Positions 23,980-52,473 of a stretch of DNA of 64,000 nt are shown here, piece after piece; position 1 is the stretch's first letter; each line of letters opens with the position of its first letter. The DNA is from Perna viridis (taxonomy: Eukaryota), in NCBI GenBank assembly GCA_037379345.1, contig CM074520.1, forward strand, positions 14,859,488-14,923,487, read 5' to 3'. The translations under genes were made by a program, and so were the position numbers. The notes beneath the pieces were generated by a model. It made no database searches and was not told the DNA's origin. It worked only from the letters and a program-made list of their open reading frames with translations.

Positions 23980-24025
23980 ATGGCGTCGATGGATGATGAA
24001 GAAGTAGACTTTTTGAAAGATCAGG
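23980..24025 (+). CDS. SCLT1: SCLT1 exon 1
   Basis: MASMDDEEVDFLKDQ, donor GTAAGT. Confidence 0.9.
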
Positions 24026-27000
24026 GTAAGTTCAGGCGGGTCACAAGTTCAGACCTGTGACTGTAATACTGCTGTGGTCTTTTCGGCCCAAATGTCAGCA
24101 TATAGGATAACATGCCAACGAAAAACTGATCCCGTAGAAGGATAGTTTTTTTTGTAAACCCCTTTTCTCATGATCTTAATCAGTTGTTGTTAATTATATT
24201 CTGACACTGTATGACGAACAGGAGAATGGACCAGTTAAGAAATTCAACCATCTCTGGGTGTTCATATGAATTTCAGTTGGCAATTCAGTTAGAATGATGC
24301 CACCAGAGTTTGCTGTGAAACTTGTTGTGTTAACCATATAAAAATGTTTCTGTATTTAATCCTGAAGCATAACATAGATTTAACTGACACTTCATGTAAC
24401 TGTCCTTTTCAGTGAAGAGATTAAGCGAACAACTTCAAAAGTACAGAAATGTGTCTGCTGAGAGTGCTACAGGAGAAGTATGTATATATACATGCAGGGT
24501 ACCTCAATGTTTTATTGTATTCTGTCAGTACCCTTTGTATAAACAGAACGTAATAGTCAGTATAATGACGGAGTGCAGAAATTTGAAGATAGATAGATAG
24601 ATAGATATACATTGTATGTGCATATATGTCATATAAATGCATTTGATACAGCTTAAATTTTATTTGAAGCAAATATTGGCAGGACATTTATACCAAGAGA
24701 CTCTTCTCTCCCTTCTTTACTTCATGTTTACCACCCTTGAACCTTCTTCTAAAAGAAAAAAAAAACTGTTTCTACTTTCAACTCATTGAGATTTCCCTTT
24801 TTATTGTAAAAAAATCAATACTAATACTCAAGTCAGTCATCATTATTGTAACTTTTTTTCATTTTATTGAAAAAATGGTATTTTGATTTTTGCTATTTTA
24901 AGTGAATGTGTTCATATCTTAAATACTTTTAATTGTAAAATTACATCTTTTACTATTAAAACCTTATCATATTTCTGAAAAAAAAAAAACAATAAAAAAG
25001 CGTCTCAGTTATTTCCAAATTGACAGTATTTGTCTGATATTTTAGCAAGGTGAAGGTCAAGATGGTGGTCCTGTTGCTCCATGGTTGACAGATAAAAGGT
25101 TTAGTATTATGTTCTACAATGAAAGACACCCACTTGAAAATCCAGCTAATAAAAAGATTCTTAGAGAACTTTAAAAATCTGTCAATTAAGATTAAAAAAA
25201 GAAAATTGGGAAGTAGCAAAGGAACATGTTGAACAAATATTCTAATACAGATCTAACTGAATTACAAAGCCTAATCATATACATGTGTATATGTATTTTA
25301 TTTTATTTCAACTTATTGTATGAAATTTTTTAGTCTTGCTGCAATTTTTAAACTCATTATCTTTTATCATATGTGATTGTTTTTGTTGTAGTGTTCTATC
25401 ACCATTGATAGCAGAATATGACCAACAGTTCCTGGTTTTGTTGGAGGAAAAGGAGATTTTGAGGGTACATATTGATTTCATGGGATTCTGAAAAAAAAGA
25501 TTGGGGAATATATTTTGAGTTTTTATTAATCAGAACAAAAATAGTTTAAGTTAAAAAAACATAATTTTTTTCTTTTTGCTGTCATTGACCAACCTTTCCA
25601 GGGAATCATATGTCTGAAAAAATAATCCTTTGTAGTTAGTTTTAGGGTTGCTATTATGAGAATGAAAGTAGTGATTATGTCAGAGAGAAAACAACACCAC
25701 ATGGATGAAAAAGGTCAGCTCATGGCCACTAATGGCATTAACTACATAACTTCATTTTTTTACAACCTCATTAGATTTTTATAATGAATGAAACATAGTG
25801 CTAATGTAGAAATTTTTGTTTTGATGATATTTTTGCTGTTAATATTTCAGAAAGAACTAAACAAACTAAAACCAGAATTAGAGCGGTTAATGACAGAGAA
25901 TGGTAGACTGGTACAGGATATGAAGGATAGATTAGAGAATCAGATTGGGTCAGATTTGGATGTAGAGGGAGATTTTCAACCAGTAACAGACCAGGAGCAA
26001 GTCATCAGTAATCTTCAAATGCAGGTTGAAACAGCTTTACAGGTATATCAAGTGAAGCAAACTTGTAGCATATTTTTCAGTTTTTGGTGATTACCATATA
26101 TATAATGTGCATATTTTTACATAGAAATAATTTCCAGATCATGGGGTGCATATTATACATCAATATATAAGATTTGGCCAAGAAATAAAAGATTTTTGTA
26201 AGAGAAAAGAGATTATGTAATGTAAACAAACAAACCATAAGTGAAATGTTACTGAAAGAAAGTTTATATAATCATCAAATAAATCTTAGTGTTGAATTTT
26301 AAATGATTTTGTCTTCAAATCAAGTTTAAATGTCTTTATGACATGTTTTAGGCATAGGTTGTACAATATTTCTTTCTTATAAAACACGGTGAGAGATTAA
26401 AATGAAACAACTTAAAACCAAAGAGTAACAAAGTCCTTTCTTGTCAAACCCTCCTTATTGGATGCTTTTGCAGTTGAAATTGATTATTTTGAAACTTGTG
26501 TTGATTGTTTCTAACAATTTTCTTTCTTTAAAGTATGTTTTAAAATGAAAAAAATTACGAAATTTGAGTAACAACCGAAACCGGAAATGTCCGATATACA
26601 CAATTTTTTATTTTGTTTTATAAGCCATTTCATGCATCCATTGTCATTCATTTCAAGCTTCGAAATTAAAATTATCCAATTTATGTTGCTACTGATCTTT
26701 ACATGATGTTTAAGTGTGAATAGAAGTTTGGTTCCTTTACATTTATGTAGAAAATACTTGATCAAGGTAAATAAATTGACTGATAAAGTGCAAAATATTG
26801 ACCTTTTGTCGTACAAAATTCTACTGCAATCTTTTTCTAATAAAACTTTTTTCACACGCTTTGACCTTTAAAATTGAACTGCGCACAATACATAAATGTA
26901 CATTATACACCAAAATACGGTAAGCTTTAAAATTATTTTCTTCCTCACTTTATTAGTTTGAAATTAGTTGATACATCTACTTGTAATACAGTGTAAGGTA

Positions 27001-30000
27001 TCTATAGAGTTACCCATCATATTAATTTCAATTTTTAATTTAAGCATTGTATACAGTCAAGCTTTAGATAAGTCACAGTAGCCAATATTGATGTTTTCCC
27101 CTTAATTATAGCCCCCTTTAACCATTTTGAAAAAACTTAGCATATATACATGGTTTAGTAAGGAGAAAGAAAGAGCTACACACAGAAAAACATCAGCCAT
27201 GGATATTGCTGGTGTATTTAGTATATTTATGGTTAATATATATTTTTATCAATGTATTATTTAAAAAAAATGTTAAATATATATATGTGTGTGTTGTGCT
27301 GCACCTTAAATAGACAAATATCTGTCTATTGATATTATGAAATTACCCATATGACATATCATTTGTAGGAAAAGGAGGCATCCATAGATAGATGGAGGGA
27401 AGCTGAGATGGAGATAGATAGATTACAGAAAGAATTACAGGTTATTTTAATTAACTGTTTTACATTATCTTATTTCTAGACAAGTACAGGCATAGGTTCT
27501 GATTAGTGGTTGTCTGAGGTACAGGACTCCCACTTCTAAGACCTTTGAAATTTTGTATACCTTAGATGCTGGACCTTCAATCTTTTAACTGACACTTTAG
27601 TGTGGACTTTAGATTTTGCTCAAGTGGACCATTGATTTGAAAATTGAAGTCCTAGACTTTTTACTCTTGAAAGTAAATTTGAACCGCTGACCAATGAAAA
27701 TTTTACAATTAAACTTTTTTGAATAATTTAAGTGGTAACAAAGTGCTACATGTTTTGTGTTTTTTTTTTTCAGATTTGAAACTATCATTAGTGTGTGCCA
27801 TTTTGTTTCTTTATTCTTTGAAAATGTTATAACTGAATCTGTTGTGTTTTTTTTTAAGTTTGATAAAAATTATTGTTGCTAATTTCAGAATGAAAAAGAC
27901 AGCCATCAATGGAGAGTTGTAGAAGATCAAGCTACCAGGGTAAATAAATGATGCTTGTACAAACTTTCTATGAGCTAGTAGCAAGTTGATTTTAAATTTC
28001 TTTTTAATTTTGCTCCATATTTTGCACAAGTAATACATTATTATGTTCAAGCAAAAGTATGCTGTTTAATGAAATAAAAATTTTGCTCAGTAGCCTCTGT
28101 TTATATTTGACAAATTGAAACTTAACTTACCTCCTCTGTTTAAAATTTATTAATATCTAAGCACTTGCTCCTTTTAAGGTCATCTTCCAGTCTCAATCTA
28201 ATGTTGTTAATGAATTATTTCCCCCTGTTGTTTACAGATGCAGTCAGAGTATCAAGAATCAGTAGCAGTACTAAACAGAGAGATAGAGGAGCTACAGACA
28301 GACAGCAGGTATTATGTCAAACTTCTTACAATTATTTCCAATGAGATATACTGTTTTCCCACTACAGTCTGTCCATTTATCACACCTTTTACATGTCTGT
28401 TCTCTCTGCAGCTACTTGCTACAGTTATTTGATATTTTGATACAAGTTGTTTATTTATTTCCCATTAATGTGATTTCATGATGATAACCTGAAAGGAAAA
28501 AAATACTTATGGTGGATTATTGACCCCCTCATGTATATTTTTAAAACACCTAAACTTCTGTGTATTCTTCAAACTTTTATTGTTCCATAGAGTCAGCATT
28601 TTTTCTGTTTTGAATGAAAGTTACTAATTCAAGAAATGTTAATTTTAGATTGGCAAAACAAGAGTTGGATAAAGCTAATACAGAGTTAAGAGATCTGAAG
28701 AGAGAGAATAAAGACCTAGAGCAAAAGTTACAATGGAAGGTTTGTCTGCTTTATATTAAGTAGTAGACAGGAAGTGATTCATGCATATCAAAAACCCACC
28801 TTATCCAATTTTATTTCTAATACAAGAAACAGTTACAGACCTCACTGTCGTGGATCGTTATGATGTATCCATCAGCACCATGAAAACTGATTTATTCAAC
28901 GGGTCATAGTTTACCTTTCCTCGTTTGTCTACCCTGGACTTGACTTTTTATGAGCAACTCGGCGGGTGTTTCTAGAAAAGCAGAGGACGCTTACCCTACC
29001 GGTGTACCTAGTCCATGCTCCCAGTTTTTAGTGGAGTCCTAGTTGCTCATTTGGTTTTGTTACTTTGTATGTATGATTTTAGTTACTTATGTTCTTTGTT
29101 GTGTATGCCTGTTTTCCATGTCGGGTCTTTATTCCTGGATTACATTCTTTTGATTACCGCTGTAATATTGGTTCCCTTGATTACTCTGTCATATGGTTGT
29201 TTTCACTATTGAAATAAAAAAATACATAGATTGTATGTAAAATTTATTCTTTCCAAGAGTTATCGTTCTTGATTTGGTTTGATTTGGTTGATTTTAGTGG
29301 GAGATGAATGTATGGTTTTCTCAAACATACAGATTTGAGTACAGAAATAAAAATTGTTACATAACAGTATAGCATATGTAGACCATAAAAACATCTTTTG
29401 TTTGGTGAGTTTTTCTACACCATGAATCACCCTTACCTATCTGAAGTGGTACTTAACTACTTTATGGATTAAATACTACTTCTTTAAATCTTCAGAATAT
29501 TTTTTCAGTGTTAAAATAGTAAAAAAGTGCATGTTTTTTTTTGTTTTTTTTTTCAATCATTTTCTTATTGTCATATGATTAATAACTGGCCTACATCTAT
29601 AAAGAACTTGGTATAAATTCATGCCAATGTTGGTAGTAAGGAAAATGATATAAGGATGGCAACAGCAATTCAATCAGGAAGGCAGCTAAAAATCTAATCT
29701 AATTAAAATCTTTATTCAGTAGAAGGGAGTGTTGTTAGATCTATCTTTTATTCCATTCAGTAGAAGGGAGTGTTGTTACATCCTACATGCAGTGACTGAA
29801 TGGAACAATTGATAGGTCTAATTTTAATTAGATTGCTAATTATCCAAATTAAGTTAATACAAGTAGACCTTACCTCAATGAAATTAGTATATTTTTTACA
29901 AGACTTACAGTCCAGATACACATTTTGCCTCATGTTCTGTATTTAGTTCTATATCATCAAATATTTTGAAGTCATAGTCTATTTAATTACTTCATAGAGT

Positions 30001-33000
30001 ATCATTATAATGTTGACAAAATTTTGACAAATTATACCAAGTGGTCCGTTTAGGCATTATTAATATTTTTTTCTAATTTTTATTCATGTTACATACGAAG
30101 TTTGAAATACAAAAAAAGTAATACTTACTTGCCAAAATGTAAAAAACACATAGTGTACAATATCTTGTATGTTCTGTTTTCTATCAATGGTTAATTGAAT
30201 AAATGTCTTTTTTAGGATCAAGACATTGCTGATATCATAATGAAAGAAGGCGTATCAGATAGTCACTTACAAGAAATGAAAAGACTGTTAGATGAAAGTA
30301 ATCACAAGTAAGTATATTTTTATTGCTTTATTGTAGAACAGAAATCTTCAATAATTATAAACTTTCGTATTTAATTAGGCCAGAGAAAAAACTTTTTAAG
30401 GTAACCTAACCTTCCTTAATTTTTCTGCCTACCCTAGCACATTTTAATGGTATTTTGTTAGAAATGTTGCTTAACTATATATATTTTTTTAAGTTGAGCA
30501 CTATTAAAGTCAAGAAATCATCTCATAAGTGTCTTTATAAAACAATTTAACATACCTACATACCTGCCTAGTACCTAAACTACCCTATTTTTTCCTCCAA
30601 TGTACCATATTTTGGTGTGTTTAATACACATTTATGTATTGTGCGCAGTGCAATTTTGAAGGTCTAAACATGTGAAAAAAAAGTTTTTTAGACTTAGCTT
30701 ACTGTAAAATTTTGTTATACAAAGGATCAAAACTTTCCACTTGATCGGTTAATTTATTTACATTGATGTGGTATTTCCTACGAAAATATGAAGGGAAGAG
30801 AGTTATGTGCAGACTAAAACATCATGTAAAGATCAGTAGCTACATGAAATGGATAATTTCAATTTCAATGCTTGATAAAATTGACCTAGGATGTATGAAA
30901 TGGCTTAAAAAACAAAATTGAAAGTCAAGAAAATTGGACATTTCCTGTATTTGTTGTAACTTAAATTTCACAATTTATTGTTTAAAAACATACTTTAAAG
31001 AAAGAAAATTGTAAGAAACAATCCATGTTTTATAAGAAGGAAATATTGTACAATCTTTTTTTGAAACATGTTATTAAGACATTTGAACATGATTTAATTT
31101 TGAAGAAAATATCACTAACAATTCAATTCTTAAAGATATTTGATGATCAGATCAAATTTCTTTCAGTTGCATTTCAGTGTTGGTTTGTTTGTTTGTTTGT
31201 TTACATTACGCAATGTCTTTTTTCGTTCCAAAATCTTTCATTTTGTGGCTAATTCTTATATATTTATGCAAAATACACACCCCCATATTCTGGAAAAAAA
31301 TACTATGTAAATATGTGCACATAATACACACTAAAATACTGTAACCTTAAACAGATACATATTTTTTTCTTGGCCTTATAACCCTGCATCACTGATGCAG
31401 GTTCCTATAGTTTTCAGTTCATTCATCTTTCTGTCTTCACTTGGCGTCTGTCATTGTCATCTGTCGTTAACTTTTCTTTTAAAATCTTCTCCTCGGGGAA
31501 ACCACTCAGCTCATTGGATTATTACCAAACTTGGTCACCAGCATCCTTAAGGTATTTACTTTGAAAATTGAATCAAGTAGATAGATTAAGAGTAAAACAT
31601 GGCTGCTATTGCAATTTTTAGACCACAGGGGTCAAGTCACCAATTTTTACATATATCTTTACATATATCTCAAAAACCATAAGAGATATTGGAAAATAAA
31701 TGTTATCTTCCTCCTTTAGCTTGAAGAGCTTTAATACAGTATGTATTGGATAAAAAATTTTGGGCAACTCCATGTTAGAGTTGTTGGTCTTGAAAGGAAA
31801 AATTGGACTTTCTTTTAAGTTTTCAGCCATTATTGTGAAAACAATTATAAAAAATTTCAATTAATGAAATGATCTTAAGGCATAAAAAAGCCCCCTGAAA
31901 GTTGTTGGACAACTCCTTGATTAGAGTTATTGACCTTGAAAGACAAAATATGATGGTTTTTTTTGGTAGTTTTCAGCCAATATCTTGAAAACTATAATAG
32001 AAAAAAACTTTTGTTTGATGAAATGATCCTCATGATAAGACCTACAAAAGTTTCATTGGGTCAAAACTGTCAGAAGACTTCTTGTTGAGTTATTGCCCTT
32101 GAAAGGCAAAATATGATGTATTTTTATATGCCCGTTTAAGATGGGACGTATTATAGTATACCGTTGTCCGTCCGTTTGTCATCCACACTTCGGGCAATAA
32201 CTCAAAAACACTTTCACCAACTTTTATGAAACTTTGGTGAATTGTTCATATCTATTGAGGTAAGCTCCCTTTCGATTTTTATAAATTTTAGATTTTATGT
32301 TTCCCTGTTATGAACTTTTTTACTTAAAAAAAGGGGGATTTTCAAGTTTTCGGACAAGAACTCTACAACACTTTCACCTAATTTTACGAAACTTTGGTGA
32401 ATTGTTCATATCTAATAATCTAAGTTCCCTTTTGATTTTTAAAAATTTCAGATTTATTATTTCCGTGTTCTGAATTTTTATACTTTAAACAGGGGAATTT
32501 TCAAGTTTTCACACAATTACTCAAAAGCACTTCCACCAACATTTATGAAACTTTGGTGAATTGTTCATATCTATTGAAGTAAGCTGCCTTTCAATATATA
32601 TAAATGTCAAATTTCATGTTTCCATATTATGAAGTTTTACTCAAAAAAAGAGGTGGAAATGACCAAGGAAATTTTATTTCTTGAAAAATTGTTGAACGGA
32701 CCATTTGTTATGATGATCAACTAATAAATATAAAAGGTACTTGGTAACCTTGTCAGAAAAGTGTTGAAGAAGATACAAATGTATGGGTGAAAAATCAAGA
32801 CAACAAACTTAGTTAAACTTGAGGTAGCCTTGGTGGTGCCAATTTTTTTGTGTATTTTTTATTTACTTTTTTTTTTTTTTTTTGGGGGGGGTGGGGGGGG
32901 TGGGGTGGGGGGATATTTGATAGGGCCCACAGTATTTCCAGTTGATCATATAAAATCATTAAAAGCGTAAGGACAAGTTAAGAGGGCAAGTGGTATATCA

Positions 33001-36000
33001 TGTGCTTAAAGCGCAGCTCTTTATTGTAGTGTTCATGATTGTATTTCTACTGGAAATGTCAAGTGGGAAATTATATTAGATGTAAACAACCATATAGATT
33101 GGAAAAAGGTCAATATAATTCCTTTTATTATTAAAAAGAATTTCAAGTTACACTGGTTACGATACAGAATTAATCATAGAATTTTAGCCACAAACAAGTT
33201 TTTATATAAGATTAATAAGGTCTCCAACCCTTTTTGTGTTTCTTTGTTAAAATGAAAGTGAAACAATTGTGCATTTGTTATGGGAATTTGAACATGTCCT
33301 ACATTAGTTATAGAGGAAACAAATGTATGGTTTCGAGAAAACGATGTCAGCATTCCTTTTACTAATGTAAGTTTCTTACTGGGAATCTTTCATTATGTTT
33401 GCAAAGGTAACCAACAGAACAATGTATTACAATGGATCAAACATTACATTTACTGTACAAAATATTTTGAATCACAATTAGTTTTATCAGGCCTTAAAGA
33501 GAAGCTGAAGTATAGGTATAATTTAGAGAGAATGATTGCTGTGAAAAATAAGTGTGTAGAAAACAATAACCAACTTTGGCATAGTTATGAGTTTTTATCT
33601 TGATACATCTATACCCTTCATCAGGTGCAAATATGTTAAATAAATAAATTTCTTAGTTACTATGTTTCATATAAAATTTTTATTCAGAGCTCAGTATCTT
33701 CATCATTTCATCTCTTTTTTATTAACAATTTCTCTTTTCACTTCTACCTACAACACTTATTTCACAACAAAAACCAACACAATTGGTGATATGTTTTATG
33801 GTGTATTCTGTATTTATGCTGAATTAATAGTGTTATACATGTTGGCTTTAAAAAATAAATAATTTATAAATAAGTTCTTCCAGTCATTAGTAATATGATA
33901 ATGTATATTAAAAGCAAATACAGCTTCAAAACACCAACAATGTATGAGTAAAATTAAATTTTACATATCTAGCAGGGCATCATTTCAAAACCAAGACAGG
34001 AAAACATATGGAAAAGAAGATAATTTACATTCCAATTTTCCTTCACAAAGAATTCACATTAGGAATAACATGATGATCAAAAGTTATTTCTTTATCTTCA
34101 ACAAAAGTGCAGTTATTGTGACATCAACAATGTTGTGACATCATAATGTCAGCATGTTGACAGCAACAGAGGTATGACGTCATAATGGCACTGGGGACAT
34201 TTACAATGGAATTATGTCATAATGTCTCTATGGAGTTAATGGCGAACAGGATGTTGAAGAAATGACCATGTAGATTTAGATAGGGAAATATGTAAAACCA
34301 GTGGAAGGCCTTTGGCCAAGACCTCTTTATTGTAGTTTCATATTATAATCTACTAGTATTCATTTCTGAAAGATATTGCTGAATCTGGTATTTATTTGTC
34401 ATGGTAAGAAACAGAAGTAATGTAGATTTTAATCATGTGTTTTGGACCAGTTGTTGTATAGAGTCCTAATTATTGGAGTTTCTTTCGATTTCTTGCAAGC
34501 TTATAACTAATGAAAATAATTATGAATTGGAGATGTGCCATGGAATAGAAAAAAGCTTATCATGGCATGAAAAAGTAAATCATAATGTTTATAAATAAAA
34601 ACATATGAAATTATTGGTATGTTTGTAGATTATCTCAAGTGACGAGAGAGCTAGAAGAAACTAAGACAGATAAAGCTGGTATGGAAGCCATCATTAAAGA
34701 ATCCAGAACAAGACAGTAAGTTTTGTAATGTGTAAACCATATGATTTTTAGGAGGGGGCTATGGATGCTATGTAGGTCATATTACATTTTCCATATAATT
34801 ATGATTTGAATACATGTGCTACAGACTTTTTTTGGAAAATTAGCTTTTTTCCCATAGGCAGAGAGTGGGTCAGAGTATCTTTTTCAGTGTGGTCTGTTTT
34901 GTTTTGGTTTAAAAGTTATCAAAAGACATGAACTAAAACTCCCTTAACTTGGGCTGATCCATTTTTATGGTATATTATCTTCATTTGGTGTATGGTGCCA
35001 TTTTTCACCCAGAAATATTTTACTTTGAATATTTTGAAATGGCAAATGTCATTTTTAAATTATGTGAGAGTGGCTGCTTTTAACTAAAAAAAATATTTCA
35101 ACTCAATCTCTATGGAATATACAGCATCTTGTAATTTCTTCTTAAATATCCGGGCCATTTTAGGTGGTTCTTAGCTCAGCTCCTGTATGCTTGATAAAAG
35201 TGTTTATTAATTAATGGCATGATTCCATATTTATATGATTTTAGAAGGGTAGAATCTGGTCACCATAATCACAGGAACTTATAACAAATGCTATTTTGTA
35301 GACCTTAACTTGCAAAGAATGATAAGACTTAAGTTTGAATTTAGGACTTTTAATACGATGGGCCCTGTCATCTGTATCTGATATATATTGTTATGCTATG
35401 TATTTTAGTGCAGATTTAGAGAAAAGAGAATTAGATGCTGTATCCCAGGTCAGAGATGCTGTCCAGATGGTAGAGAAAGCTATGATGGAGAAAGAACAGG
35501 CAGAGATAGAATTAAAACAGAGAGAAGAGGAGGCTGACAAACTTCAGGATGCCATTAGTAAACTTATTAATGAAGCTGGAATGAAAACAAGACAGGAAGT
35601 AGGTACTCAAGTAATTGTAGAACGTCTTGGTATCCAAAATGACTGTTGAATGTCTTGGTACCCAAAACAACTGTAGAATGTCTTGGTACCCAAAATAACT
35701 GTAGAATGTCTTGGTAGGCGAAGTACCTTTAGAATGTCTTTGGACCCAAAGTGACTGCAGCTGTTGAATTGTGACCAATTTAATTTAGGAAGTTGTACTT
35801 GGGACTTTATTTTACATATAAAATCAAACCTGTCCTAAGTGACCTACGAAGGGAGAGTAATCACTGTCTCATTAAACAGATGGTCTTTATGTACGGATTA
35901 ATTTTTTATAGAAAACACAACAAAGGGATATTTTAACAATCATTGAACAATTATGACATGAGTACCTGATAGGTAATCATATGTAAACACCATGAACATG

Positions 36001-39000
36001 TGTATCTCTATATGTAATCCATTTCCCCTGTTAAATGTTAACTCACTATTTTCATTTTGTACTTTTGTAGGTTGACATTGTCAGAAACCAGTGCAATGAA
36101 AGAATAACTAAACTAACAGAAGAACTCAATACTTTTGAAATGGTAACTTTATATTTATTAACTTCTTACCTGATGGTAGATTATTTTAGACAGCAAAACC
36201 CATTCAATTGCTCTATTTTTATGGATTTAAAATATATATTAAGATATTATGTTTTATTTATGTTTATTTTCCGAAGCTCATTCCAGATTTTCATTCCACA
36301 AGTAATTCTATATAAAGTTTATTATTTAGGTATATAGATGAAAAACAGAAAATTAAACATTCTTCTGAAATGATTGTAATATTGACGTTTTCTTGGAATT
36401 TATGCTTCTTGATATGTATAAATTCATGCATTGAATTGAGGAAGTTTTTGTTGTTAGATTCAGTAACTTAAAATACAAAAGGAATTTGCAATTTGCTTAA
36501 ACTGCTACTAACAAACTGATTTTGTTAGCAAAGAAATATAAAATAAAATTTGCATTATAGTAATATAATTAATTCTCAGGATAGTGCAGATTTGAGGGAA
36601 CAGGTACAGAGAGCCATCAGAGACAAAAGAAATGTCGAGTCTGAGCTAGAAAAGGTTAGTTAATGTATTTTTAAACAAATTTTGCAATAATTGTCCTGTC
36701 ATAGTTGTATACAATGAATAGAAGAGTTTTAAATTTCAGTGTTATAATGTTGGCTATATACTCAAGGATAAGAATACAAATTTTAGGACTTAATTAACAA
36801 TATTTTAGTAGGATAACGAATTGGAGAGTAAATAACCAAATTATGAACATGAGTGCTGAAGAACACCAAGATTTAATGAGTGTGCAGAACTTGTTCAGCC
36901 CACAAATTAAATTTTCAAGCTTTTTTGACATGATTTATTACCATTTTCAACATGAATTTTAAATTTTCTGATCTGAGGATTGATATTCCTGTTGTGATGT
37001 TTTGGTGGGAGAAATTCCTAGAGTGAATTTACCAAATTTATTTCACAGTGTGAATTATCCATTTATTTTTTACACAGAAAACATTCAATGAATTATTACT
37101 ATCTATATTATAATTATGTTTAATTAAAAGTTGTTGCTCTTTTTCAGTTCCATCATGAGCAAAAAGTATCTGTAGCTAAAGACAAAGCATCTTTTGAAGA
37201 TATGAATAGGAGAGCGATTGCAGCTGAAAGGTCAAGAGATGACCTTGAGGTCAAAGTTGAAACATTACAGAGTGAATTGAAGAAGGCTAACATGAAGTAA
37301 GTCCTTGTCCTTACCATGGAAGAACATATTATTTCTATTTGACTGGGCAAAAAAGAAAATTATATCTTCCCTTTTGTCTGACAAAGCCATGTTTTTTTTG
37401 TCTGTCTGTTCATCATAAAGAACACATTCTCTATATTTCCATATATTGCATTGGATTAGAGTGAAAGCCCAGGTTTTGTCAGGCATTTATTTAACCACCA
37501 TTTACTAGAAAGGAGGCTAAATTGCCCGATCCTACCCACCTCTCCCTATTTCCAGTGGCAATCAAAATTGCTTGACCCCATTATCATTGTGTCCCATCCC
37601 ATTTTTCATTTCATTATCATTTCATGTTCATTTTATCATCCACTTCATGTTAATCGCCTGAATATAGCTGAAATATTGCTGCTTGGGCATTAAACCCCAA
37701 CAAACAAACAAACAAAATAGAACGGCAAATGTAGAAAAAATAAAGAAAAATACTCATATTTCTTTGTAAACTAGCAACCAACAGATATCAAGTCAAACAG
37801 ATGTACAGTTGGCACAATTGAAAGAGAGGATGTCGGGTATGGAACAAGAATTTGAATTTCTTAATGATGATAGGATGAGACTTCAGAAGGATAATGATGA
37901 ATTAAAGAAACGCATGCAGTCAGCCGAGAAAGAAAAGGAGGCGGCTTTAAGAAAATGTCAGAAAGAGGTATGGTATTGTTCTTCAATTTTGAGAACACTT
38001 TGTTAAATTCCCATTAGAAAGAAAACTAGAGACTAAACTTTTTTCCACAACCAAGATATACAGTTAATATTTATTTTCTTGGTTGCTGATTTTAATGGAT
38101 TCTGTCAAATAAACACATTAAATTTATGGTTTTTAAAGTTACTATATTTATCATAGTATTAAAAATCAGTTTTGCTGACACTATATTTTAGGCTTATACA
38201 TTCACAAAGTAGTTGGCTAAAATAGGCTAACTTGAAAATGAATGCCGGGGTATTCATCATTTGCACACATTAGTCTTTGCTGTGCCCCGCGACGCGTCCC
38301 AAGGGAACATGGAAATGCCAGGCGTCCGTCCGTTTGTCGGTTTTCTGCACTTTTTTTTGTTATGCTTTTACCAAATAAGTTTGTTTTTGGTATGTGGACA
38401 TATTACGAAGTTACAGATTAAGTTTGACTTTAGTTACGATTGAATGATTTTTACAGACATTATGGCTCATGGACTCAGAAAATTCCAGTGAATTTACAGT
38501 TTTCACACTTTTTTTGTTATGCTTTTACCAATTGATTTTATCTTTTGAGAATTAAACTATGAGAAGTTATAGGTTTAGTTTGACTTTGGTTACAGTTGAT
38601 TTATTTTTATGAAATGTATGACCTTGGACTATGAAAATTTCAGTGATTTTAAGTTTTCCACATATTTTTTTTTCATGGGGGACATTGGAATGCTGTTCTT
38701 CTATTATCATTATACTCCCACTCGATGCCTGTTTGATCGGTGTTCATCATTCCATAGCAGATTTCTCAGCTTCTGTAAAATATTTTATGCAAAGCTTCAT
38801 ATGGGTATATCAGATCATGGACTGCATTTTCATACTCATATGACATCTGCTTTCTGTTTGATGAAAACAAACGGGGATATTACAAGTGAGACATTGCTAA
38901 GAGATTTCTCGTTTAACATGAAATGTGCCATTGCAAACTTTTGTACAAGTAAATACCTGTTGTTTTAGGTTTTATAATATAAAAAATCAGTCAAATGTTG

Positions 39001-42000
39001 ACAATGATATTTCATTTGTTGAATGATTTTACACCAGTCTGGAAGGGTGAAATTATAGATTTCTGGGCATGTCTTTAGGAGACAACCATTTGATTCTGAT
39101 GGGGGGACCAGAAAAAAGTTGTTAGTAAAGATTCTGCCTTACATTTCCTAGAAAATCAATAATTGTCTGACTTCAGTCCAGAAACTTCATACAGTGAAAT
39201 GGAAATAAGTAATCTTGCTCTGATGTGGTTGAAAATAAATTTGCTGACCCACAAAATTTCAAAAATAAATATTTTGACCCTTCAAAATGTGCCCCCCTGT
39301 CAGAATGAAATGGTCATCCCCTTAGAGGATCGAATTAATAAATATCTTAAAAGTCATAACTTATTATGTTTGTTTTAATTTACATGTACCTTGGTGCAAA
39401 TCTTAATCTAATCATAAAACCATTAATAGGCAAAATTACATGTATTTCTCATTACTTTCAGATGGGTGTCATCTGAAAATCACATTAATTTCATATGAAG
39501 CTTGATTCACATGTATATCACCTGAATAGTATTTTTCAGTCTTTGAATCTGTTTTATATTTTTATCAACAATAGTTTTCCAATGTTTTAAACTGAAGTAT
39601 TTTAACTTCAGATGACCATATTTGAACATGAACAACAGCAGAGATTATTAGACTATGAAACTAGACTACAGTGTTCAGAGGATGCTAGTCGACAAACTGT
39701 TAATGAATTGAGAAATTTGTTGACAGGACAACAGAGAATGTGTGCTAGGTAAGTATACATTGGGTGTGCCAATTAGTTTTCTGGGATATTAAGAAAGTGA
39801 TTCATGGTGTAGAAAAACCTCACCAAACTAATGATGCTTTTTTTGTTCTACATATTTTATATTTTCACATTAGGATGGTCCTTTCGGTAATCAGATGTGT
39901 ATTGAGATAATCATACATTAACCTCTTACTTAATTCAACCAAAACAAACCAAATCAAGAATGATAACTCTTGGAAATTTCAAATTACGTGTACAATCTAT
40001 ATAATTTTTTGTCTTCAAGTGCACAACCAAAGGAAAAACTAAGACTGGTATGAGGTCTGTAACTGCCCTAAATAAGAAATAAAAATGAGTTTAGTGAGTA
40101 TTTGACGTGAAGGAATCAACTTCTGTCTGATTTTAATAAAGACTGCTACTTAATTTTTTTGAGATTTGAATACAGATTTTTTTTCAAATTTATGGCAAAT
40201 CTATCACTATTTTTTCTTTTTTTTTTGACTGGGCTGCCATGTTTACTTGAAGAAAACAGAAGTTAAACTGAATATAAATGTCGAAAGTGACATGAAATTA
40301 AAAATAATACATAAAGTCCTGTTACATGTTCATTTTCCCCCCCTCAATGCGGAGCGGGGACATAGAAATGCTGGTGTCTGTCCGTGCGTCTGAAGCTTGT
40401 GGATGCAACTCCTCAGAAACGGCTGAACGGAATTTGACAAAATTTTGTAGGATTGTTTGTCACCATATGTAGTTGACCATAATTAACCGCTATTTTGATT
40501 CAACAAGTTTTATGGGAGTTATGGGACTTTGTTCATTTTTCACATTATTCGCATGGCAACACCTTGCGGCCGCAACTCCTCAGAAACTGCTGAACGGAAT
40601 TTGACCAAATTTTGTAGGATTGTTTGCCACCATATGTAGTTGACCATACTTAACCGCTATTATGATTCGACAAGTTTTATGGGAGTTATGGGACTTTGTT
40701 CATTTTTCACTTTCTTTTTTTGTGGATTTTTTTTTCTTGTAAAAAGAATTCTTAACCTAACTTAATTTGATTCATTAAGATACATTAACCTTGAATTGCC
40801 ACATGGACTTGTGAAAGCACATAAGTTTTGAATCTGCTATTTATAGAAGTGTCAAACATTTGTAATTCAACTCTTTCTACAGCGGCGGGGACATATGGCT
40901 ACGCGTAGCATTCTTGTCTTATTAGGTTTTTCTTTTTTTTTTTTTGTTGGGGAGGGGAATTAATAATGTTTCTTAACAAATGTCTGAAAATTTGGATGAT
41001 CACAATGGTACATTGGCAGTGTGTTCATAATGTTATTTTTAGATGGAAAGAAGAATGTCAGACAATTACAGAAAAATTTGAACAGAAATTAAAAGATGTG
41101 AGATCAGAACTTAGTCATGTTAAAAAGCGAAATGATGAACTGACATCATTGTTAAGGGAGAGTCAAGAAAAGACACTTGAAGCAGAGAGAATGATTACAG
41201 ACTATGCTAAAAATATCAGAAGGATGGAGGAAAGAGTCAGAGACTCTGAAAGCCGAGCCTCGGAGGCATCAAAACAGGTAATGCTGTAGAATAGGAACCA
41301 GTTTTAGCTGGACTCCATGCTCTCTCTATGCATCAGAGGCATCAAAACAGGTACTGCTGTAGAATAGAAACACGTATTTTAGCTAGACTCCCTGCTCTCT
41401 ATATGCACCAGAGGCATCAAAACAGGTACTGCTGTAGAATAGAAACAAGTGTTTTAGCTAGACTCCCTGCTCTATGCCCCAGAGGCATCAAAACAGGTAC
41501 TGCTGTAGAATAGAAACAAGTATTTTAGCTAGACTCCCTGCTCTCTCTATGCCTCAGAGGCATCAAAACAGGTACTGCTGTAGAATAGAAACAAGTGTTT
41601 TAGCTAGACTCTCTGCTCTCTCTATGCCTCAGAGGCATCAAAACAGGTACTGCTGTAGAATAGAAACAAGTGTTTTAGCTAGACTCCCTGCTCTCTCTAT
41701 GCCTCAGAGGCATCAAAACAGGTACTGCTGTAGAATAGAAACAAGTGTTTTAGCTAGACTCCCTGCTCTCTCTATGCCTCAGAGGCATCAAAACAGGTAC
41801 TGCTGTAGAATAGAAACAAGTGCTTAACTAGGTTTTATCATTGTACAGTATATATGAACACTTGGAGACATTTTCCAAACTTGATCTCAAATGAATAAAG
41901 ATTAATGAAGTTGTAATTTTATATCTATATAACTTGTTGTTTGAAAAAGAACCTTGTGAACTAGTGGTTTCTAACACAAATATATATTTGATATTTTTAT

Positions 42001-44442
42001 ATCAGAGAGTATTCTTTTTGAAAGTAATAACAATTTCTGGAATGACACTTTCTAGAAATAATATTCTATGAGACTTTGTATACAGATTTATTTGTCAAAA
42101 ATCATAATGATACTGAAACATCAGTTGTTTCAAGATTCTTATCAATAATTCCACTGAAAATGTATTATTGACATATAACATATACACTTAGCTAGACTGT
42201 ATGCTCCCTCTGCTTCAGAGGCATCAAAACAGGTTATACTGTAGTAAATTAACCAGCATTTTAGCTAGACTCCATGCTCATGTAAACATGCAAAAGTGAA
42301 AGATGTGGCAAGTCATATCTTAACACCAAGATAACACATAGACGCTAAATAATCTTTAAATGAAAAACAGTGATAGATACAGGTAAGTTGGAAAACAGTT
42401 TACAACTAAAAAGGTGATGACATCTACTCTGGTCAAATTTAAATTTAGTTTCTTTGTTTACAAAGACATTTTGAATCTGCCTTTATTCTCTTATATACAC
42501 ATATAAGAAGGGTAAAACTTACATAAGTCTTTTCTTAATAATAAAAAAAATTATCTGTGTATTGGTTTTTTAGTTACTTGTACTTTCTATTATGATATAC
42601 ATTGGTAAGAATCTAATTTTCAAACAAATAAATTTCTGATATGATTTATTGGTTTTTGATTCCAACATTATTTTCACAGCTTGCTAGACATTCTATGAGA
42701 GAGAGACAGATGCAGAATGAAAGGAAAAGTTTATTGCTTGAATTAAATGCATCAACAAGATCAAATAGGTAAGTGTGATGAAGGGAATATTTTAGAAGAT
42801 TTTATATGATAACAGTTATTGATCCTTGAAATTCTACTATCTTATTCAAAATCTACTGATTAAATCCTCAAACCATTGTCTTATGAAATCATTGCTTTAT
42901 GAGGTTTCCTACCTCACAATCTTAATCTATAACATATGAGCTCTATGTAATGATTTTTTTCATAACATCATCATGTTGGTTTTACTTTTGTTAGTCCACT
43001 TTTGTTAAATGTCTTTTTGCTTTTTACACGTAGGTTTAACCCCTTTTCACTTTCCATAACTTCAATTCATGAACTTAGAATCAGCATAATTGAGACAAAA
43101 AATCATTTTCTGAAACCACAAAGTCATTGACTTAAGCACATGTATTATCTATGAAATTACTAACTGAACTTTAAATTTGTCCATTTATTTCATTGATGCC
43201 TAAATACTTTACAATTTTTTTTAATGATTTCTTATATTAATATTTCATTTTAGCAGTAAAGGTTGGAAGCATCAATGGTCAATTTGAAATTCAGGGTGAT
43301 TCTCTCTTTCGGTGTATTCACATGTATATTTTGTCCTACTCACATATTAACTAACTCATGTTATCATATAAATAGTCTATTTGTTGTAAACACAATAATA
43401 AGTGTAAATTTCTGTAAGAGTCAGGCAAAATAGAAGTAAATCAGAAACATGCATATCAAAATCCCACTGATCTGACAATACTATTTTACCAATTTTTCTA
43501 TAGAATGTTAATAAAATGATATTTTTGACAGAATTATCTGTCTTTGAAATGTTCATTATCAGTGCATGAGACACACTGCATGTATGTACACTATTAAGGA
43601 AGTTGACACAAAACATAGACTTATCATCCACTGCCCGATTCTTAAGAGACCCTGTAGTTAAAATGTGAGGGTGAGTATGTTTGATAATTCAAATTGAATT
43701 CTATGGTACATTTTTCATTTAATTCTTGTTATGATTATAAGGAAAGTTTGGATTGTTGTACTATGAGCTACAATTTTTTTCAGTAGAATTTGTTTTTGTG
43801 GTAACACGGGAATCCAAGTTGGCTTTACTACCTTTTTAATCTCTCCATCTGTATAATTTTAATCATGGAAATCCCTTACACAGTTATAAGATGAAAATTT
43901 ATACTGATTGATGATGTCATATGAATATAAACATTAATAACAGAATAATTATCATGTTTACTCAAACATCATTTCATTCTGCCTGTAAGTGGATGACCAA
44001 TCAGGAATAATACTTCCACTATGTACATAAAAAAATAAACACATTATCCTCTTGTAACATTTAACATTGTAGCTAAGCCTATGAAGTTGTGTCAGGGATA
44101 TTGTAAGGCTTCCATTCTGTCTGTCCATCTTTTTGAACATTCAGATGTTGTCATAATTGAATGTTTGTTTTACCAAACTTGTTACATACTGCAAGGCTTC
44201 CTTTTAATTCCCCAGGTCCAAGGTCAAAAGGTCTTTGTTTTAATGGAGAGGATTTGTGTCTTCTACAGCAGTTTGTTTAACTGTTTATAGCTTGTTTGTG
44301 GTATCAACCAATTAATGATTTTTTTTTTTTCAGAAATGCTGATGCCTTAATGCTGGGAGATTTAACATCTAGTCCCAAATCTAAGCTACATAATTCATCC
44401 TATCTTAATGGAAACAAAGAAGACTCATTTTCTGATAGATGA
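23980..44442 (+). CDS. SCLT1: Sodium channel and clathrin linker 1 (centriole distal appendage coiled-coil protein); whole gene, 20 coding exons, 713 aa
   Basis: join: 23980-24025, 24413-24477, 25046-25098, 25392-25464, 25851-26042, 27369-27440, 27889-27939, 28238-28308, 28649-28739, 30216-30307, 34629-34715, 35409-35598, 36071-36142, 36580-36654, 37148-37296, 37775-37967, 39612-39748, 41043-41277, 42680-42768, 44334-44442 (2142 nt, GT-AG, phases consistent). EVDFLKDQVKRL, LSPLIAEYD, QCNERITKLTEEL, AERSRDDL, NELRNLLTGQQ, RWKEE match vertebrate SCLT1 as recalled. Confidence 0.92.
24413..24477 (+). CDS. SCLT1: SCLT1 exon 2
   Basis: KRLSEQLQKYRNVSAESATGE. Confidence 0.9.
25046..25098 (+). CDS. 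SCLT1: SCLT1 exon 3
   Basis: QGEGQDGGPVAPWLTDK; bridges phase 0->2. Confidence 0.85.
25392..25464 (+). CDS. SCLT1: SCLT1 exon 4
   Basis: VLSPLIAEYDQQFLVLLEEKEILR. Confidence 0.9.
25851..26042 (+). CDS. SCLT1: SCLT1 exon 5
   Basis: KELNKLKPELERLMTENGRL...NLQMQVETALQ. Confidence 0.92.
26503..26921 (-). mobile_element. Truncated TACCGTA-ended MITE (Tc1/mariner-like termini)
   Basis: Ends ...CACCAAAATACGGTA; reverse complement aligns by eye with 30603-31024. Confidence 0.75.
27369..27440 (+). CDS. SCLT1: SCLT1 exon 6
   Basis: EKEASIDRWREAEMEIDRLQKELQ. Confidence 0.92.
27889..27939 (+). CDS. SCLT1: SCLT1 exon 7
   Basis: NEKDSHQWRVVEDQATR, 51 nt, AG/GT flanks. Confidence 0.8.
28238..28308 (+). 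CDS. SCLT1: SCLT1 exon 8
   Basis: MQSEYQESVAVLNREIEELQTDS. Confidence 0.88.
28649..28739 (+). CDS. SCLT1: SCLT1 exon 9
   Basis: LAKQELDKANTELRDLKRENKDLEQKLQWK. Confidence 0.9.
28847..29190 (+). mobile_element. 5'-truncated retroelement 3' end (Penelope-like family, by recollection)
   Basis: Residual frame VVDRYDVSISTMKTDLFNGS* (28847-28909) resembles a C-terminus I recall from abundant bivalve RT ORFs; followed by a CpG-containing structured segment. Confidence 0.55.
30216..30307 (+). CDS. SCLT1: SCLT1 exon 10
   Basis: DQDIADIIMKEGVSDSHLQEMKRLLDESNH. Confidence 0.9.
30603..31343 (+). mobile_element. Full-length MITE, nested in an AGGCCA...TGGCCT-ended element (~30376-31378)
   Basis: TACCATATTTTGGTGTG ... 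CACACTAAAATACTGTA terminal inverted repeats with TA flanks. Confidence 0.75.
31376..34335 (+). mobile_element. Cluster of nested HINE-like elements in SCLT1 intron 10
   Basis: Outer start CACTTGGCGTCTGTC..GTCGTTAAC; inner element ~32121-33030 with GTCCGTCCGT and three ~160-bp units (32209, 32369, 32528); identical 3' end CTCTTTATTGTAGT at ~33017 and ~34323. Confidence 0.65.
34629..34715 (+). CDS. SCLT1: SCLT1 exon 11
   Basis: LSQVTRELEETKTDKAGMEAIIKESRTR. Confidence 0.88.
35409..35598 (+). CDS. SCLT1: SCLT1 exon 12
   Basis: ADLEKRELDAVSQVRDAVQMVEKA...AGMKTRQE. Confidence 0.93.
35601..35768. repeat. ~28-bp minisatellite directly after the SCLT1 exon 12 donor
   Basis: GGTACCCAAAATAACTGTAGAATGTCTT-like units, 5-6 copies. 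Confidence 0.85.
36071..36142 (+). CDS. SCLT1: SCLT1 exon 13
   Basis: VDIVRNQCNERITKLTEELNTFEM. Confidence 0.93.
36580..36654 (+). CDS. SCLT1: SCLT1 exon 14
   Basis: DSADLREQVQRAIRDKRNVESELEK. Confidence 0.93.
37148..37296 (+). CDS. SCLT1: SCLT1 exon 15
   Basis: FHHEQKVSVAKDKASFEDMNRRAIAAERSRDDLEVKVETLQ. Confidence 0.92.
37654..37716 (+). mobile_element. SINE/LINE 3' tail fragment
   Basis: ATATAGCTGAAATATTGCTG...GGCATTAAACCCC followed by (CAAA)n tail. Confidence 0.55.
37775..37967 (+). CDS. SCLT1: SCLT1 exon 16
   Basis: NQQISSQTDVQLAQLKERM...RMRLQKDNDELKKR...CQKE. Confidence 0.9.
38275..38700 (+). mobile_element. HINE-like element, same family as 7341-7875
   Basis: Shares GGCGTCCGTCCG, CCAAATAAGTTTGTTTTTGGTATGTGG and 3' GGGGGACATTGGAA with the 7341 copy. 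Confidence 0.75.
39075..39325. mobile_element. MITE
   Basis: TTAGGAGACAACCATTTGATTCTGA ... TCAGAATGAAATGGTCATCCCCTTA inverted termini. Confidence 0.65.
39612..39748 (+). CDS. SCLT1: SCLT1 exon 17
   Basis: MTIFEHEQQQRLLDYETRLQCSEDASRQTVNELRNLLTGQQRMCA. Confidence 0.93.
40333..40920 (+). mobile_element. Well-preserved HINE-like element
   Basis: GCGGGGACATA near both ends, GTCTGTCCGT microsatellite, two ~167-bp units (40405, 40572), 3' palindrome GCTACGCGTAGC 40898-40909, T-rich flanks. Confidence 0.8.
41043..41277 (+). CDS. SCLT1: SCLT1 exon 18
   Basis: WKEECQTITEKFEQKL...ESRASEASKQ, donor CAG|GTAATG. Confidence 0.93.
41257..41823 (+). repeat. 75-bp tandem array (about 7.6 units) that includes the SCLT1 exon 18 end and splice donor
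   Basis: GCCTCAGAGGCATCAAAACAG|GTACTGCTGTAGAATAGAAACAAGTGTTTTAGCTAGACTCCCTGCTCTCTCTAT; units at 41257, 41330, 41405, 41476, 41551, 41626, 41701, 41776; detached copy ~42188-42278. Confidence 0.97.
42680..42768 (+). CDS. SCLT1: SCLT1 exon 19
   Basis: LARHSMRERQMQNERKSLLLELNASTRSN, donor GTAAGT. Confidence 0.85.
44334..44442 (+). CDS. SCLT1: SCLT1 exon 20 (probable last coding exon)
   Basis: Long T-tract+CAG acceptor, phase match, NADALMLGDLTSSPKSK...DSFSDR*; the tail is not one I recognise as conserved, so the call rests on splice signals. Confidence 0.72.
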
Positions 44443-45523
44443 CAAATGTAACATATACTGTTCAATTAACATCTCAGGAATCAAGTCACTGCTGCCCTGA
44501 ATCTGATCAGTGAAGGGAAACAAAACATTAGATGGTTTGTTGGTTCTCCAAAAGAACCATTAAACATATCCATACATACTATCAACATCATTCTTGGTAT
44601 AAATACTCAGAACACAACACAGCTAATATGATTGTTTAAGATTTGCCTTCTGCCAATTTTGAAAACTTCGATCGACATTAATTGTCATGTAGACAAATAC
44701 ATGTATTGTTTGAGTATGAAATTTCAATGGTTACTTAATTATACATGCATTGTAATTAGTTCAAGCTGTGGCTGTTCATATCAAAATATTGTCTAAGTAT
44801 TATTGTTTGTGGGATCTTAATTACCTCTCCAGCTAAGAATCATGCAAAATGTGATTCATGGGTAAAAAGCCTACATATTTTTATTTTTGATATTTTGTTT
44901 GAATTGCCATAATTTACAGAAATTAACATTCAGTTTTTCATATAACCCGTGTTCTTAGGTGAAAAAACTATACAGAATGCACTGTAGATTTCAAAATTAA
45001 GGGAGATAACTCTGTAAATGAAACTCAAATACAATAGAATCTATTGGATTTTCAATGTTGATTATCTCCTAAGAGCAGGCAGATTAGAATGAATAATTAC
45101 TCATTTAATAGTATAGACCCATAAAACAACTTAATTGCAAAAACAAAAACATGTAGCCTTTTTTTGGGGTGTATCACATTTTTCAGATTTTGCATGATTC
45201 TTACAAAAACAACTACTTAATATTTGTGATTTTTATTGTTCAGTATAAAAATGAACTGAAACTGCTAAGTAAAGAATGAAAGATTAACTAAGAAGTGATG
45301 ATACTCTATTAAAATACAAGAATTCAATTATAAATGTAGCTAACTGAAATATTTCTGAAAATTTATACCCTCAAATGAAAGTACTTTATAGTATTGTGTA
45401 GAATTTATCTTATAATTGAAATAACTGAATTACTGACATATCAAAGAGTGCTATGATTTTACAGATATCAGAGTCCGTCCACCTATATTTGTATTTTGAT
45501 ATATTTTCTATGTATAAGACATC

Positions 45524-50907: not shown

Positions 50908-51252
50908 GCAATTCAATGTGATTTTTTCTAGTCTTTTTAATGGCTATGTTTAGTATAACTGTTTTGTTTTTTGGAATAAGTTCATTGAAATAAGTATACA
51001 CTCTGTATTGTGGTCTAAGTGCAATTCAATGTGTTTTTTCTTGTCTTTCTTAATGGCTATGTTTGGTATAACTGTTTTGTTTTTGGAAATGTCAGCTCAT
51101 TAAAATAAGTATACACTCTGTATTGTGGTCTCATGTGCAACTCAATGTGTTTTTCTTGTCATTTTAAATGGCTATGTTTGGTATAACTGTTTTGTTTTTT
51201 TTGGAAATGTCGGTTAAAATAACTATATACTCTGTATTGTGGTCTCATGTGC
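50908..51252. repeat. ~115-bp tandem repeat x3 inside the MULE
   Basis: GCAAYTCAATGTG...TAATGGCTATGTTT...TATTGTGGTCT units starting ~50908, 51021, 51137. Confidence 0.9.
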
Positions 51253-51582: not shown

Positions 51583-52473
51583 TCACTCTAAATGGAGAAG
51601 GTGTGATGCTGCGTCAGCATATTGAATAACTGTAATGTTACCATGTGTGAGTCTTTCTTTCAGCTGCACTAATCTGCTGTCAATTGTACGGTACTTCTTG
51701 GTTTTTGGTCGAATAGTTCCACCGGCGTTGTGTTGGATTTGCTTGATCTCATTTGCAGCCTGAATATCTTTGAACATACGGATAACGGTGAAGATGTTTG
51801 GATGTGCGTTGTTGACTTTTTTCTTCAATTTGTTATACCACCCCTCTAAATGGTTTGTTGTTCTAGGACCGTCATTGCTGAAGTGGTTCCATAACTGTGG
51901 AGTACCTTCTACCCATTGTGTTGTGACGTAATCGGTAAATGTAGTAGTTCCTGGAGGTGTATCGATGTCTTCCAGTTCATTCAAGGCATTGAACCAGACA
52001 TCTTCAATTTGGTCTAGTGGTACGAGTGGCAACACAGCAGCTCTTCTGACAAGTTGTTGAATGTCAACGTTGTTCTTATATGCGGGTTGTAGATCTGTCT
52101 CTTGGGTTTTTCTCCATACGGCTTCAGTGAAATGAAAGAAACAACCTTTTATCGTCACATTTGGAAATACACTTGTAGCTGCATTATGAGCGGCAGTCTC
52201 GAAGTCCATAAAAATTGAAGTTGGTTGAAGTTGTAGCTGAAGTTGTTCCATAGTAGTTTTGAGTTGCGTGAATAATCTGAAGTAGATGTCGGTGCTTTTC
52301 CCTGGTAAAAATGCGAAGAGTAGTGGATACATTTGGTCATTCACCATGGCATGAATAGTATATATCTGCTTGAATAAAGACGGGCATGTATAGAAAGTTC
52401 CGTCACAGTATAAGGTGTTGGCATTTGCCAAGTTAATCAAATTTTCTGATGTTGCAAAAGCAATAATGCGCAT
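51583..52473 (-). CDS. MULE transposase catalytic core (DDE), lacking N-terminal DNA-binding region
   Basis: 296-aa ORF with YCDGTF (D1), FMDFE (D2), GCFFH (CxxH), RTTNHLEGW (E), HPNI; frame extends upstream as VIFDDNNNQDMRIIAFAT to an acceptor-like site at 52506-52507. Confidence 0.9.
   Translation of the reverse strand: MRIIAFATSENLINLANANTLYCDGTFYTCPSLFKQIYTIHAMVNDQMYPLLFAFLPGKSTDIYFRLFTQLKTTMEQLQLQLQPTSIFMDFETAAHNAATSVFPNVTIKGCFFHFTEAVWRKTQETDLQPAYKNNVDIQQLVRRAAVLPLVPLDQIEDVWFNALNELEDIDTPPGTTTFTDYVTTQWVEGTPQLWNHFSNDGPRTTNHLEGWYNKLKKKVNNAHPNIFTVIRMFKDIQAANEIKQIQHNAGGTIRPKTKKYRTIDSRLVQLKERLTHGNITVIQYADAASHLLHLE

Follow-up and report, generated by a model that had tools for sequence, protein, structure and literature searches.

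The SCLT1-like gene and the repeat at the end of its exon 18

The window, i.e. the whole stretch of 64,000 nt of Perna viridis DNA that was analysed, carries on its forward strand an SCLT1-like gene of 20 coding exons, in which all introns (19/19) follow the GT-AG rule and the exons join into an open frame of 710 aa; judged from its sequence, the gene is intact. The predicted product is 84-86% identical to full-length mytilid-like proteins and 60% identical to those of oyster and scallop, and its similarity to proteins annotated as SCLT1 extends over the full length, the name SCLT1 being that of database labels. Proteins of Mytilus that bear the name sodium channel and clathrin linker 1-like show 85% identity to it, and for the peptide of exon 18 the identity to such a protein of Mytilus edulis reaches 97%; the protein searches and a cluster of five proteins yielded none from Perna viridis itself. 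A Pfam search with the Mytilus protein returned CCCAP only. Intron 18 is 1402 nt long, interrupts the frame in phase 0 and holds a tandem array, the first unit of which straddles the exon-intron boundary. The elements of the locus are listed below, the slash within a donor marking the boundary between exon and intron.

23989..44460, + strand: SCLT1-like gene, 20 coding exons, the end coordinate lying just beyond the stop codon
41043..41277, + strand: coding exon 18, 235 nt, terminating in ...ASEASKQ, with the phase-0 donor CAG/GTAATG
41257..41329, + strand: unit 0, the final 21 nt of exon 18 and the initial 52 nt of intron 18, including the authentic donor
41330..41822, + strand: units 1-7, seven copies of the exon end with CAG/GTACTG, unit 7 being incomplete
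41823..41831, + strand: left copy of a 9-nt direct repeat at the break of unit 7, 8/9 identical to 42187-42195
41832..42186, unstranded: AT-rich segment of 355 nt with 24.5% GC, unrelated to the unit, a putative insertion splitting the array
42187..42279, + strand: diverged, detached copy with the donor CAG/GTTATA at 42232, continuing into unique intron
42680..42768, + strand: coding exon 19, 89 nt, with a conventional acceptor upstream

Run on the window, TRF reports a repeat at 41257-41822 with a period of 75, 7.6 copies, 93% matches and a score of 985. A 17-mer covering the exon end and the donor occurs nine times in the window against a chance expectation of 0.17, all occurrences falling in 41263-42234, and this count was matched by 0 of 100 shuffles. 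Downstream of the authentic donor (CAG/GTAATG, after 41277), seven copied donors read CAG/GTACTG, with their last exon-like bases at 41350, 41425, 41496, 41571, 41646, 41721 and 41796, and the eighth reads CAG/GTTATA at 42232, giving intron 18 eight further copies of CAG/GT. The initial annotation, made from the letters alone, had described a 75-bp array multiplying the end of an SCLT1 exon together with its donor. The array itself proved real, and the host gene, the exon and the duplication across the donor are borne out by the 20-exon model, its 710-aa product and the position of unit 0 over 41277. The seven copied donors were also placed correctly, the positions given being those of the first intron base, i.e. 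+1 of the last exon-like base used here; the donor-to-donor distances along the array are 73, 75, 71, 75, 75, 75 and 75.

The idea that the unit is a mobile element was rejected, as both of its halves, the intronic as well as the exonic, are confined within the window to the array region (41263-42279) and the residues encoded by its exonic part are conserved in other bivalves, which indicates that the repeat arose from the gene and not the reverse. A transposon origin of the 355-nt segment is likewise unsupported: it has the 9-nt flanking repeat, but neither a terminal inverted repeat nor a long match elsewhere in the window that would represent a second copy was seen. A stop-free frame of 121 codons over the array (41462-41824) is a by-product of the repetition. 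Polyadenylation-like hexamers are present in intron 18 at 41894, 42540 and 42627, one of them about 70 nt behind the array.

Relationships among the units and history of the array

Compared over 68 columns, units 5 and 6 match completely and unit 4 deviates from them by a single base, units 1-3 show 2-4 differences from the other units, and 8-13 columns separate unit 0 and the detached copy from units 1-6, so that homogenised inner units (0-1 differences of 68 columns among units 4-6) stand beside diverged boundary units. A recent expansion of the distal units, as initially proposed from their near identity, is supported by units 4-6, and the units carry distinct private substitutions. Three shared states set unit 0 and the detached copy apart from every one of units 1-7, among them the A at +4 of the donor; since these two share the A, the C at +4 would be the derived state, already present in the founder of the young expansion. 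All seven young copies have this weaker +4 base.

Unit 7 stops at about unit position 48-56, and the unit picks up at the same position at 42187. The chance of the 9-nt flanking repeat at 8/9 identity is about 6e-4 over 7 registers, a figure that is overstated, both sides being unit-derived. Together, the resumption of the unit and the flanking repeat suggest that the array probably once ran on into the detached copy, its old tail, from which the 355-nt insert now divides it. In the history that these relationships suggest, a first duplication of about 73-75 nt would have taken place across the donor of exon 18, the old and diverged tail would later have been cut off by the 355-nt insertion, and one unit type carrying +4 A>C would then have undergone a recent expansion and homogenisation, probably via slippage or unequal exchange. 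Positions +3 to +6 of the donor have received three substitutions on the two copy lineages, for which a post hoc test gives a chance of about 0.02-0.07; selection for weaker copied donors is taken here as a lead only.

A scan of metagenome contigs for the orthologous intron yielded, from 406 candidate stretches, one locus (L001), which at 62% identity is too distant and which has the equivalent donor without a repeat. In this distant relative (2765-2905 and 3361-3444), as in an oyster-like fragment (P0021), the counterpart of exon 18 breaks after residue 47; by this comparison, exon 18 probably corresponds to two exons elsewhere, the intron having been lost in this lineage or gained in others.

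Splicing of exon 18 in the sequencing runs

Four of the 24 listed runs were compared over 40760-41432, which covers exon 18, unit 0 and unit 1; the distal units are represented by proxy on units 0-1, and exon 19 as loose ends only. X11 and X14 are classed as RNA-type because they hold spliced contigs, no listed run being on record as RNA, whereas X21 consists of raw reads, amounting to 19% of the run, with 1-2 raw reads on the exon and accordingly very low depth. Junctions with fewer than 3 reads fall below the listing threshold, contigs lose rare forms, and decay-sensitive forms are under-seen.

In X11, a contig of 1955 nt covers 41040-41277 at depth 12, with letters of exon 17 before and letters of exon 19 after this stretch, and depth is zero on 41289-41432. 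X14 shows the same junction from 41277 to exon 19 at a depth of about 16 (15.9), and in both runs the loose end at 41277 equals the first 30 letters of exon 19. By depth arithmetic, the bins of X21 fit two reads whose last base is 41277 and no read that extends beyond this position. The authentic site gives the main spliced product in both RNA-type contig sets (2/2) and at both raw reads at the exon end (2/2), at low depth. The listing gives no joints for any of the four runs, and hence none of a copied donor or a cassette for the three RNA-type runs at depths of 1-16, where rare forms lie below detection.

Unspliced molecules were found as well. X14 contains a 140-nt unspliced contig over 41223-41362, running through both 41277 and 41350 at a depth of 4.5 versus 15.9 for the spliced one, and a contig of the consensus unit at depth 3.7; four contigs reproduce its depth bins within 0.02, with no depth left over for one that would end at a copied donor. 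Four reads of X21 (two starts) are placed on 41301-41372, and bin arithmetic suggests that in letters and end point they match the last unit, in which case they would cross the donor at 41796 unspliced and on the mRNA strand. All spliced molecules seen use the first donor, and none of the array-derived molecules seen is spliced, a consistent though shallow picture. The final ~69 nt of intron 17 have a depth of 0 in three RNA-type runs whereas intron 18 has depth in two, a difference that may point to slow splicing or partial retention of intron 18.

At position 41253, a synonymous C/T difference separates the sequences, with T in X11, in the DNA-type run X3 and in the spliced X14 contig, and C in the window and in the unspliced X14 contig; this split could reflect allele-biased retention, a popped bubble or an assembly effect.

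A boundary-spanning minisatellite with probably near-silent donor copies

The locus is a minisatellite that repeats the end of exon 18 and its donor seven times into intron 18, and we consider it likely that the copies are near-silent pseudo-donors removed together with the intron. Exon 18 would be defined from its acceptor to the first donor, and the copies would be passed over owing to their downstream position, their poorer match to the consensus and the lack of a usable acceptor of their own. Most leaked transcripts would meet a stop three codons further on or lose the frame, and nonsense-mediated decay would likely remove them; the array would drift in length with little effect. The copied donors match the consensus at 6/9 positions and the authentic donor at 7/9, and they score 5.5 versus 7.4 in a small matrix made from the gene's other 18 donors, the value of 5.5 falling within the spread that the real donors of the gene show (2.4-10.3); all matrices used here were built from 19 sites of one gene and are a crude model. 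Recursive splicing at AG/GT was dropped as an explanation, the CAG ahead of each copied donor scoring about -4 as an acceptor, and so was a masking of the donors by structure, RNA folding of four pieces giving z values of -1.2, +0.8 and +1.2, and -2.2 for the one two-unit piece.

Minisatellites spanning an exon-intron boundary are an already known class, with human F7, CBS and LMNB2 and the lancelet 'mirages' as members, and the mussel array belongs to it. It resembles the 37-bp VNTR in intron 7 of human F7 (Borensztajn et al. 2006, PMC1557585), for which the passages concerned describe a first unit spanning the boundary, a donor reiterated 4-8 times in the intron, use of the most upstream donor, and identical downstream donors that work only when the first is disabled. 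In F7, each copy equals the true donor and includes 4 exonic nt (PMC1557585), whereas those of the mussel include 21 exonic nt, differ at +4 and lie in a 75-nt unit with several AGs; length polymorphism, a usual feature of such repeats, is only hinted at in the mussel. By analogy, we infer that the first-donor behaviour of F7 would also apply to the mussel. As summarised in the same source, the 31-bp VNTR in CBS intron 13, the interferon-inducible 6-16 gene and the repeats of LMNB2 (100 bp) and PDGF (81 bp) share this anatomy; LMNB2 and PDGF, the unit lengths of which are similar to that of the mussel array, use the authentic donor alone, as does F7, whereas CBS and 6-16 additionally employ two proximal pseudo-sites (PMC1557585), and no such use was seen in the mussel runs.

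Among invertebrates, the lancelet mirages (Adh3 and the globin genes BflGb6 and BflGb9; PMC3087553) are likewise tandem duplications of an exon-intron boundary, and in BflGb9 it is the 3' boundary of an exon that is duplicated, as in the mussel. Their units are described there as 81-100% alike, with homogenised inner units, boundary units excluded from this, and regular splicing undisturbed. They differ from the mussel array in phylum, in unit length (10-72 and 150-160 nt) and in that haplotype length differences were seen, which in the mussel are only hinted at; they have been proposed as raw material for intron gain (PMC3087553). New in the mussel are the weaker +4 base in all seven young copies and the detached copy as a probable old tail of the array.

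Leaky use of the copied donors and array length

A second reading, to which we give a minor chance, is that the proximal copied donors compete for U1 and thereby act as a leaky or slowing decoy, so that an appreciable share of transcripts extended to 41350 or 41425, or keeping intron 18, would be lost to decay and the length of the array would tune SCLT1 output. Read-through past the authentic donor gives V-M-L-stop, and in all of the donor extensions (8/8) V-M-L is followed by the stop, at 150-1032 nt upstream of the last junction, which confirms the TAG after three codons predicted in the initial annotation; with stops at least 150 nt before the last junction, such forms would be under-seen. 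The unspliced contig of X14 joining exon 18 to the intron (4.5 versus 15.9), the sense-strand unspliced array reads of X21 and the end of intron 17 without depth are all compatible with a leak, and the apparent weakening of the copied donors (the three substitutions in +3 to +6 with their post hoc p of about 0.02-0.07) fits selection against it. Additionally, use of proximal copies is described for CBS and 6-16 (PMC1557585) and for human ABCA7 (PMC5954066), the 25-bp VNTR of which starts at the donor of the exon preceding intron 18. As reported there, use of the next copy in ABCA7 leads to a premature stop and nonsense-mediated decay, and both expression and the skipping of the following exon correlate with VNTR length (PMC5954066); the likeness of the mussel array to it is one of anatomy.

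However, ordinary pre-mRNA accounts for the unspliced pieces, and X14, the type of which is not on record, may contain DNA. X11 is without intronic depth, no X21 read crosses 41277, and the unspliced X14 contig continues past 41350 without a break; furthermore, the F7 study saw its identical pseudo-donors unused and, among 50 clones for each construct, came upon no other variants (PMC1557585). The junction from 41277 to 42680 is the only one observed, at low depth, and this is one of the two outcomes, the other being no effect of array length on splicing, that had together been set beforehand as speaking against the splicing decoy proposed in the initial annotation. A bolder version, which we regard as improbable, would make the array a heritable length dial on a cilium gene, in which more copies slow or divert the splicing of intron 18, lower the amount of intact SCLT1 and occasionally add a micro-exon of 13 residues, and in which expansion became possible only after the +4 change had weakened the copied donor, i.e. 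under selection on pseudo-donor strength.

Hypothetical cassettes within the units

Candidate acceptors within the units define the following pieces on paper.

41387..41425, 41533..41571, 41608..41646, 41683..41721 and 41758..41796, + strand: hypothetical in-frame cassettes of 39 nt from the second AG, use not seen
41558..41571, + strand: hypothetical frameshifting cassette of 14 nt after CCTCAG (one example), the best-looking acceptor of the unit, use not seen

In full units, a cassette from the first AG has 43 nt and one after CCTCAG has 14 nt, and both shift the frame. A 39-nt cassette from the second AG, which had initially been ascribed to all full-length units, is present in 5/8 copies, three of which (41533, 41683 and 41758) read exactly TPCSLYASEASKQ; it does not extend to the others, as the first copy has no second AG and the cassettes of the 41496 and 42232 copies have 35 nt and 37 nt, respectively. 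The other in-frame pieces on paper are a 12-nt one encoding ASKQ and a 39-nt first-AG piece in the 71-nt unit. The frame of the 39-nt cassette is accordingly not preserved across the copies, indels in the CT tract breaking it in two of them and one having no AG.

The acceptor after CCTCAG has 15 pyrimidines in 18 positions and an AG-free zone of 25 nt, and no branch-like motif. The second AG has an AG-free zone of 4 nt versus at least 14 nt in all real acceptors of the gene (19/19), and an AG lies 12 nt upstream in 4/5 of the in-frame second-AG acceptors, while an AG 6-13 nt upstream occurs in 0/19 of the real ones. In human data, an AG at 5 nt or less from the acceptor is outside the high-risk zone and not by itself disabling (PMC9284458). 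A YTRAY or TNAY motif is absent before the eight copy acceptors tested, as against 13/19 and 18/19, respectively, of the real ones. With the same crude matrices, the second AGs of the two copies scored reach -3.1 and -4.8, i.e. lower than 18 of the 19 or all 19 of the real acceptors, the median of which is 5.7 and the lowest score -4.0. The acceptor of the 39-nt cassette lacks the combination of branch motif, pyrimidine or T tract and AG-free zone found in the gene's real acceptors. From one copied donor to the next copy acceptor there are 30-36 nt, whereas the shortest intron of the gene has 293 nt, and neighbouring cassettes are likely too close for serial splicing.

An exon nursery, in which in-frame micro-exons (39 nt from the second AG, 39 nt from the first AG of the 71-nt unit, or the 12 nt for ASKQ) would be included in some tissues and extend the C-terminal coiled coil, is very improbable by these features. 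The cassettes are open and in frame, and new exons and introns have been proposed to arise through the tandem duplication of boundaries, a link made in the initial annotation with which two papers agree (PMC3087553, PMC2812944); but any AG ahead of a phase-0 exon end has one chance in three of giving an in-frame length, and several AGs are available in every unit. Moreover, no such joint is listed in the RNA-type runs, and the words encoded by the cassettes are found in 0/62 relatives, 43/62 of which (none of them Perna viridis) pass directly from exon 18 to exon 19. The latent in-frame micro-exons of the initial annotation are not supported as a likely product, given the low acceptor scores, the missing branch-like motif, the frame not being kept and no use seen in RNA.

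The array in a second sample

X3, a DNA-type run from another sample and study than the top-matching run, contains unit 0, the first copied donor and a multi-copy core, and the array is therefore not confined to one assembly. Its shared core has 4.5x the unique depth versus 6.8x expected from the window, and its consensus loop 2.45x versus 3.3x, although contig depth is no copy number; the private letters of unit 1 were not seen. These values hint at a shorter allele in the X3 animal; the copy-number variation proposed in the initial annotation is plausible by analogy with the known arrays. That the array is partly an assembly product, with an overstated copy number or as one unusual allele, would account for the same shortfalls and is nevertheless hardly credible, as X3 holds the parts named above, consensus units are found in X14 and X21, the units have their own private substitutions, and a shorter allele in another animal would give the same X3 numbers.

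Wider context and other features of the window

The array extends a known oddity to the bivalves and, on the preferred reading of near-silent copies, would be another invertebrate example of the first donor winning. It offers a natural test of first-donor selection outside mammals and of boundary repeats as seeds of new exons. A literature search on intronic splice-site minisatellites in mussels found no paper, which does not prove their absence from print. In people, ciliopathy is reported to be caused by splice defects of SCLT1 (PMC13260799), and a length-dependent SCLT1 leak, if true, would matter for ciliated gills and larvae.

Beyond the array, the window contains further tandem or dispersed repeats with units of 115-207 nt at 7374-7807 and 38340-38673, at 32195-32650, at 4483-5446 and at 50908-51252. 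An open frame on the minus strand (51586-52536) encodes a MULE transposase domain (Pfam PF10551, E 8e-14), and a stop-free frame of 569 codons on the plus strand (55895-57601) has no Pfam match at E 0.001. Intron 17 of the SCLT1-like gene holds a dispersed repeat at 40405-40923 with internal units of about 167 nt, which is related to 775-1383, 13301-13392 and 62388-62467 and presumably resembles the satellite-bearing mobile elements of bivalves; on this repeat, the RNA runs pile up 80-190 reads from other loci.
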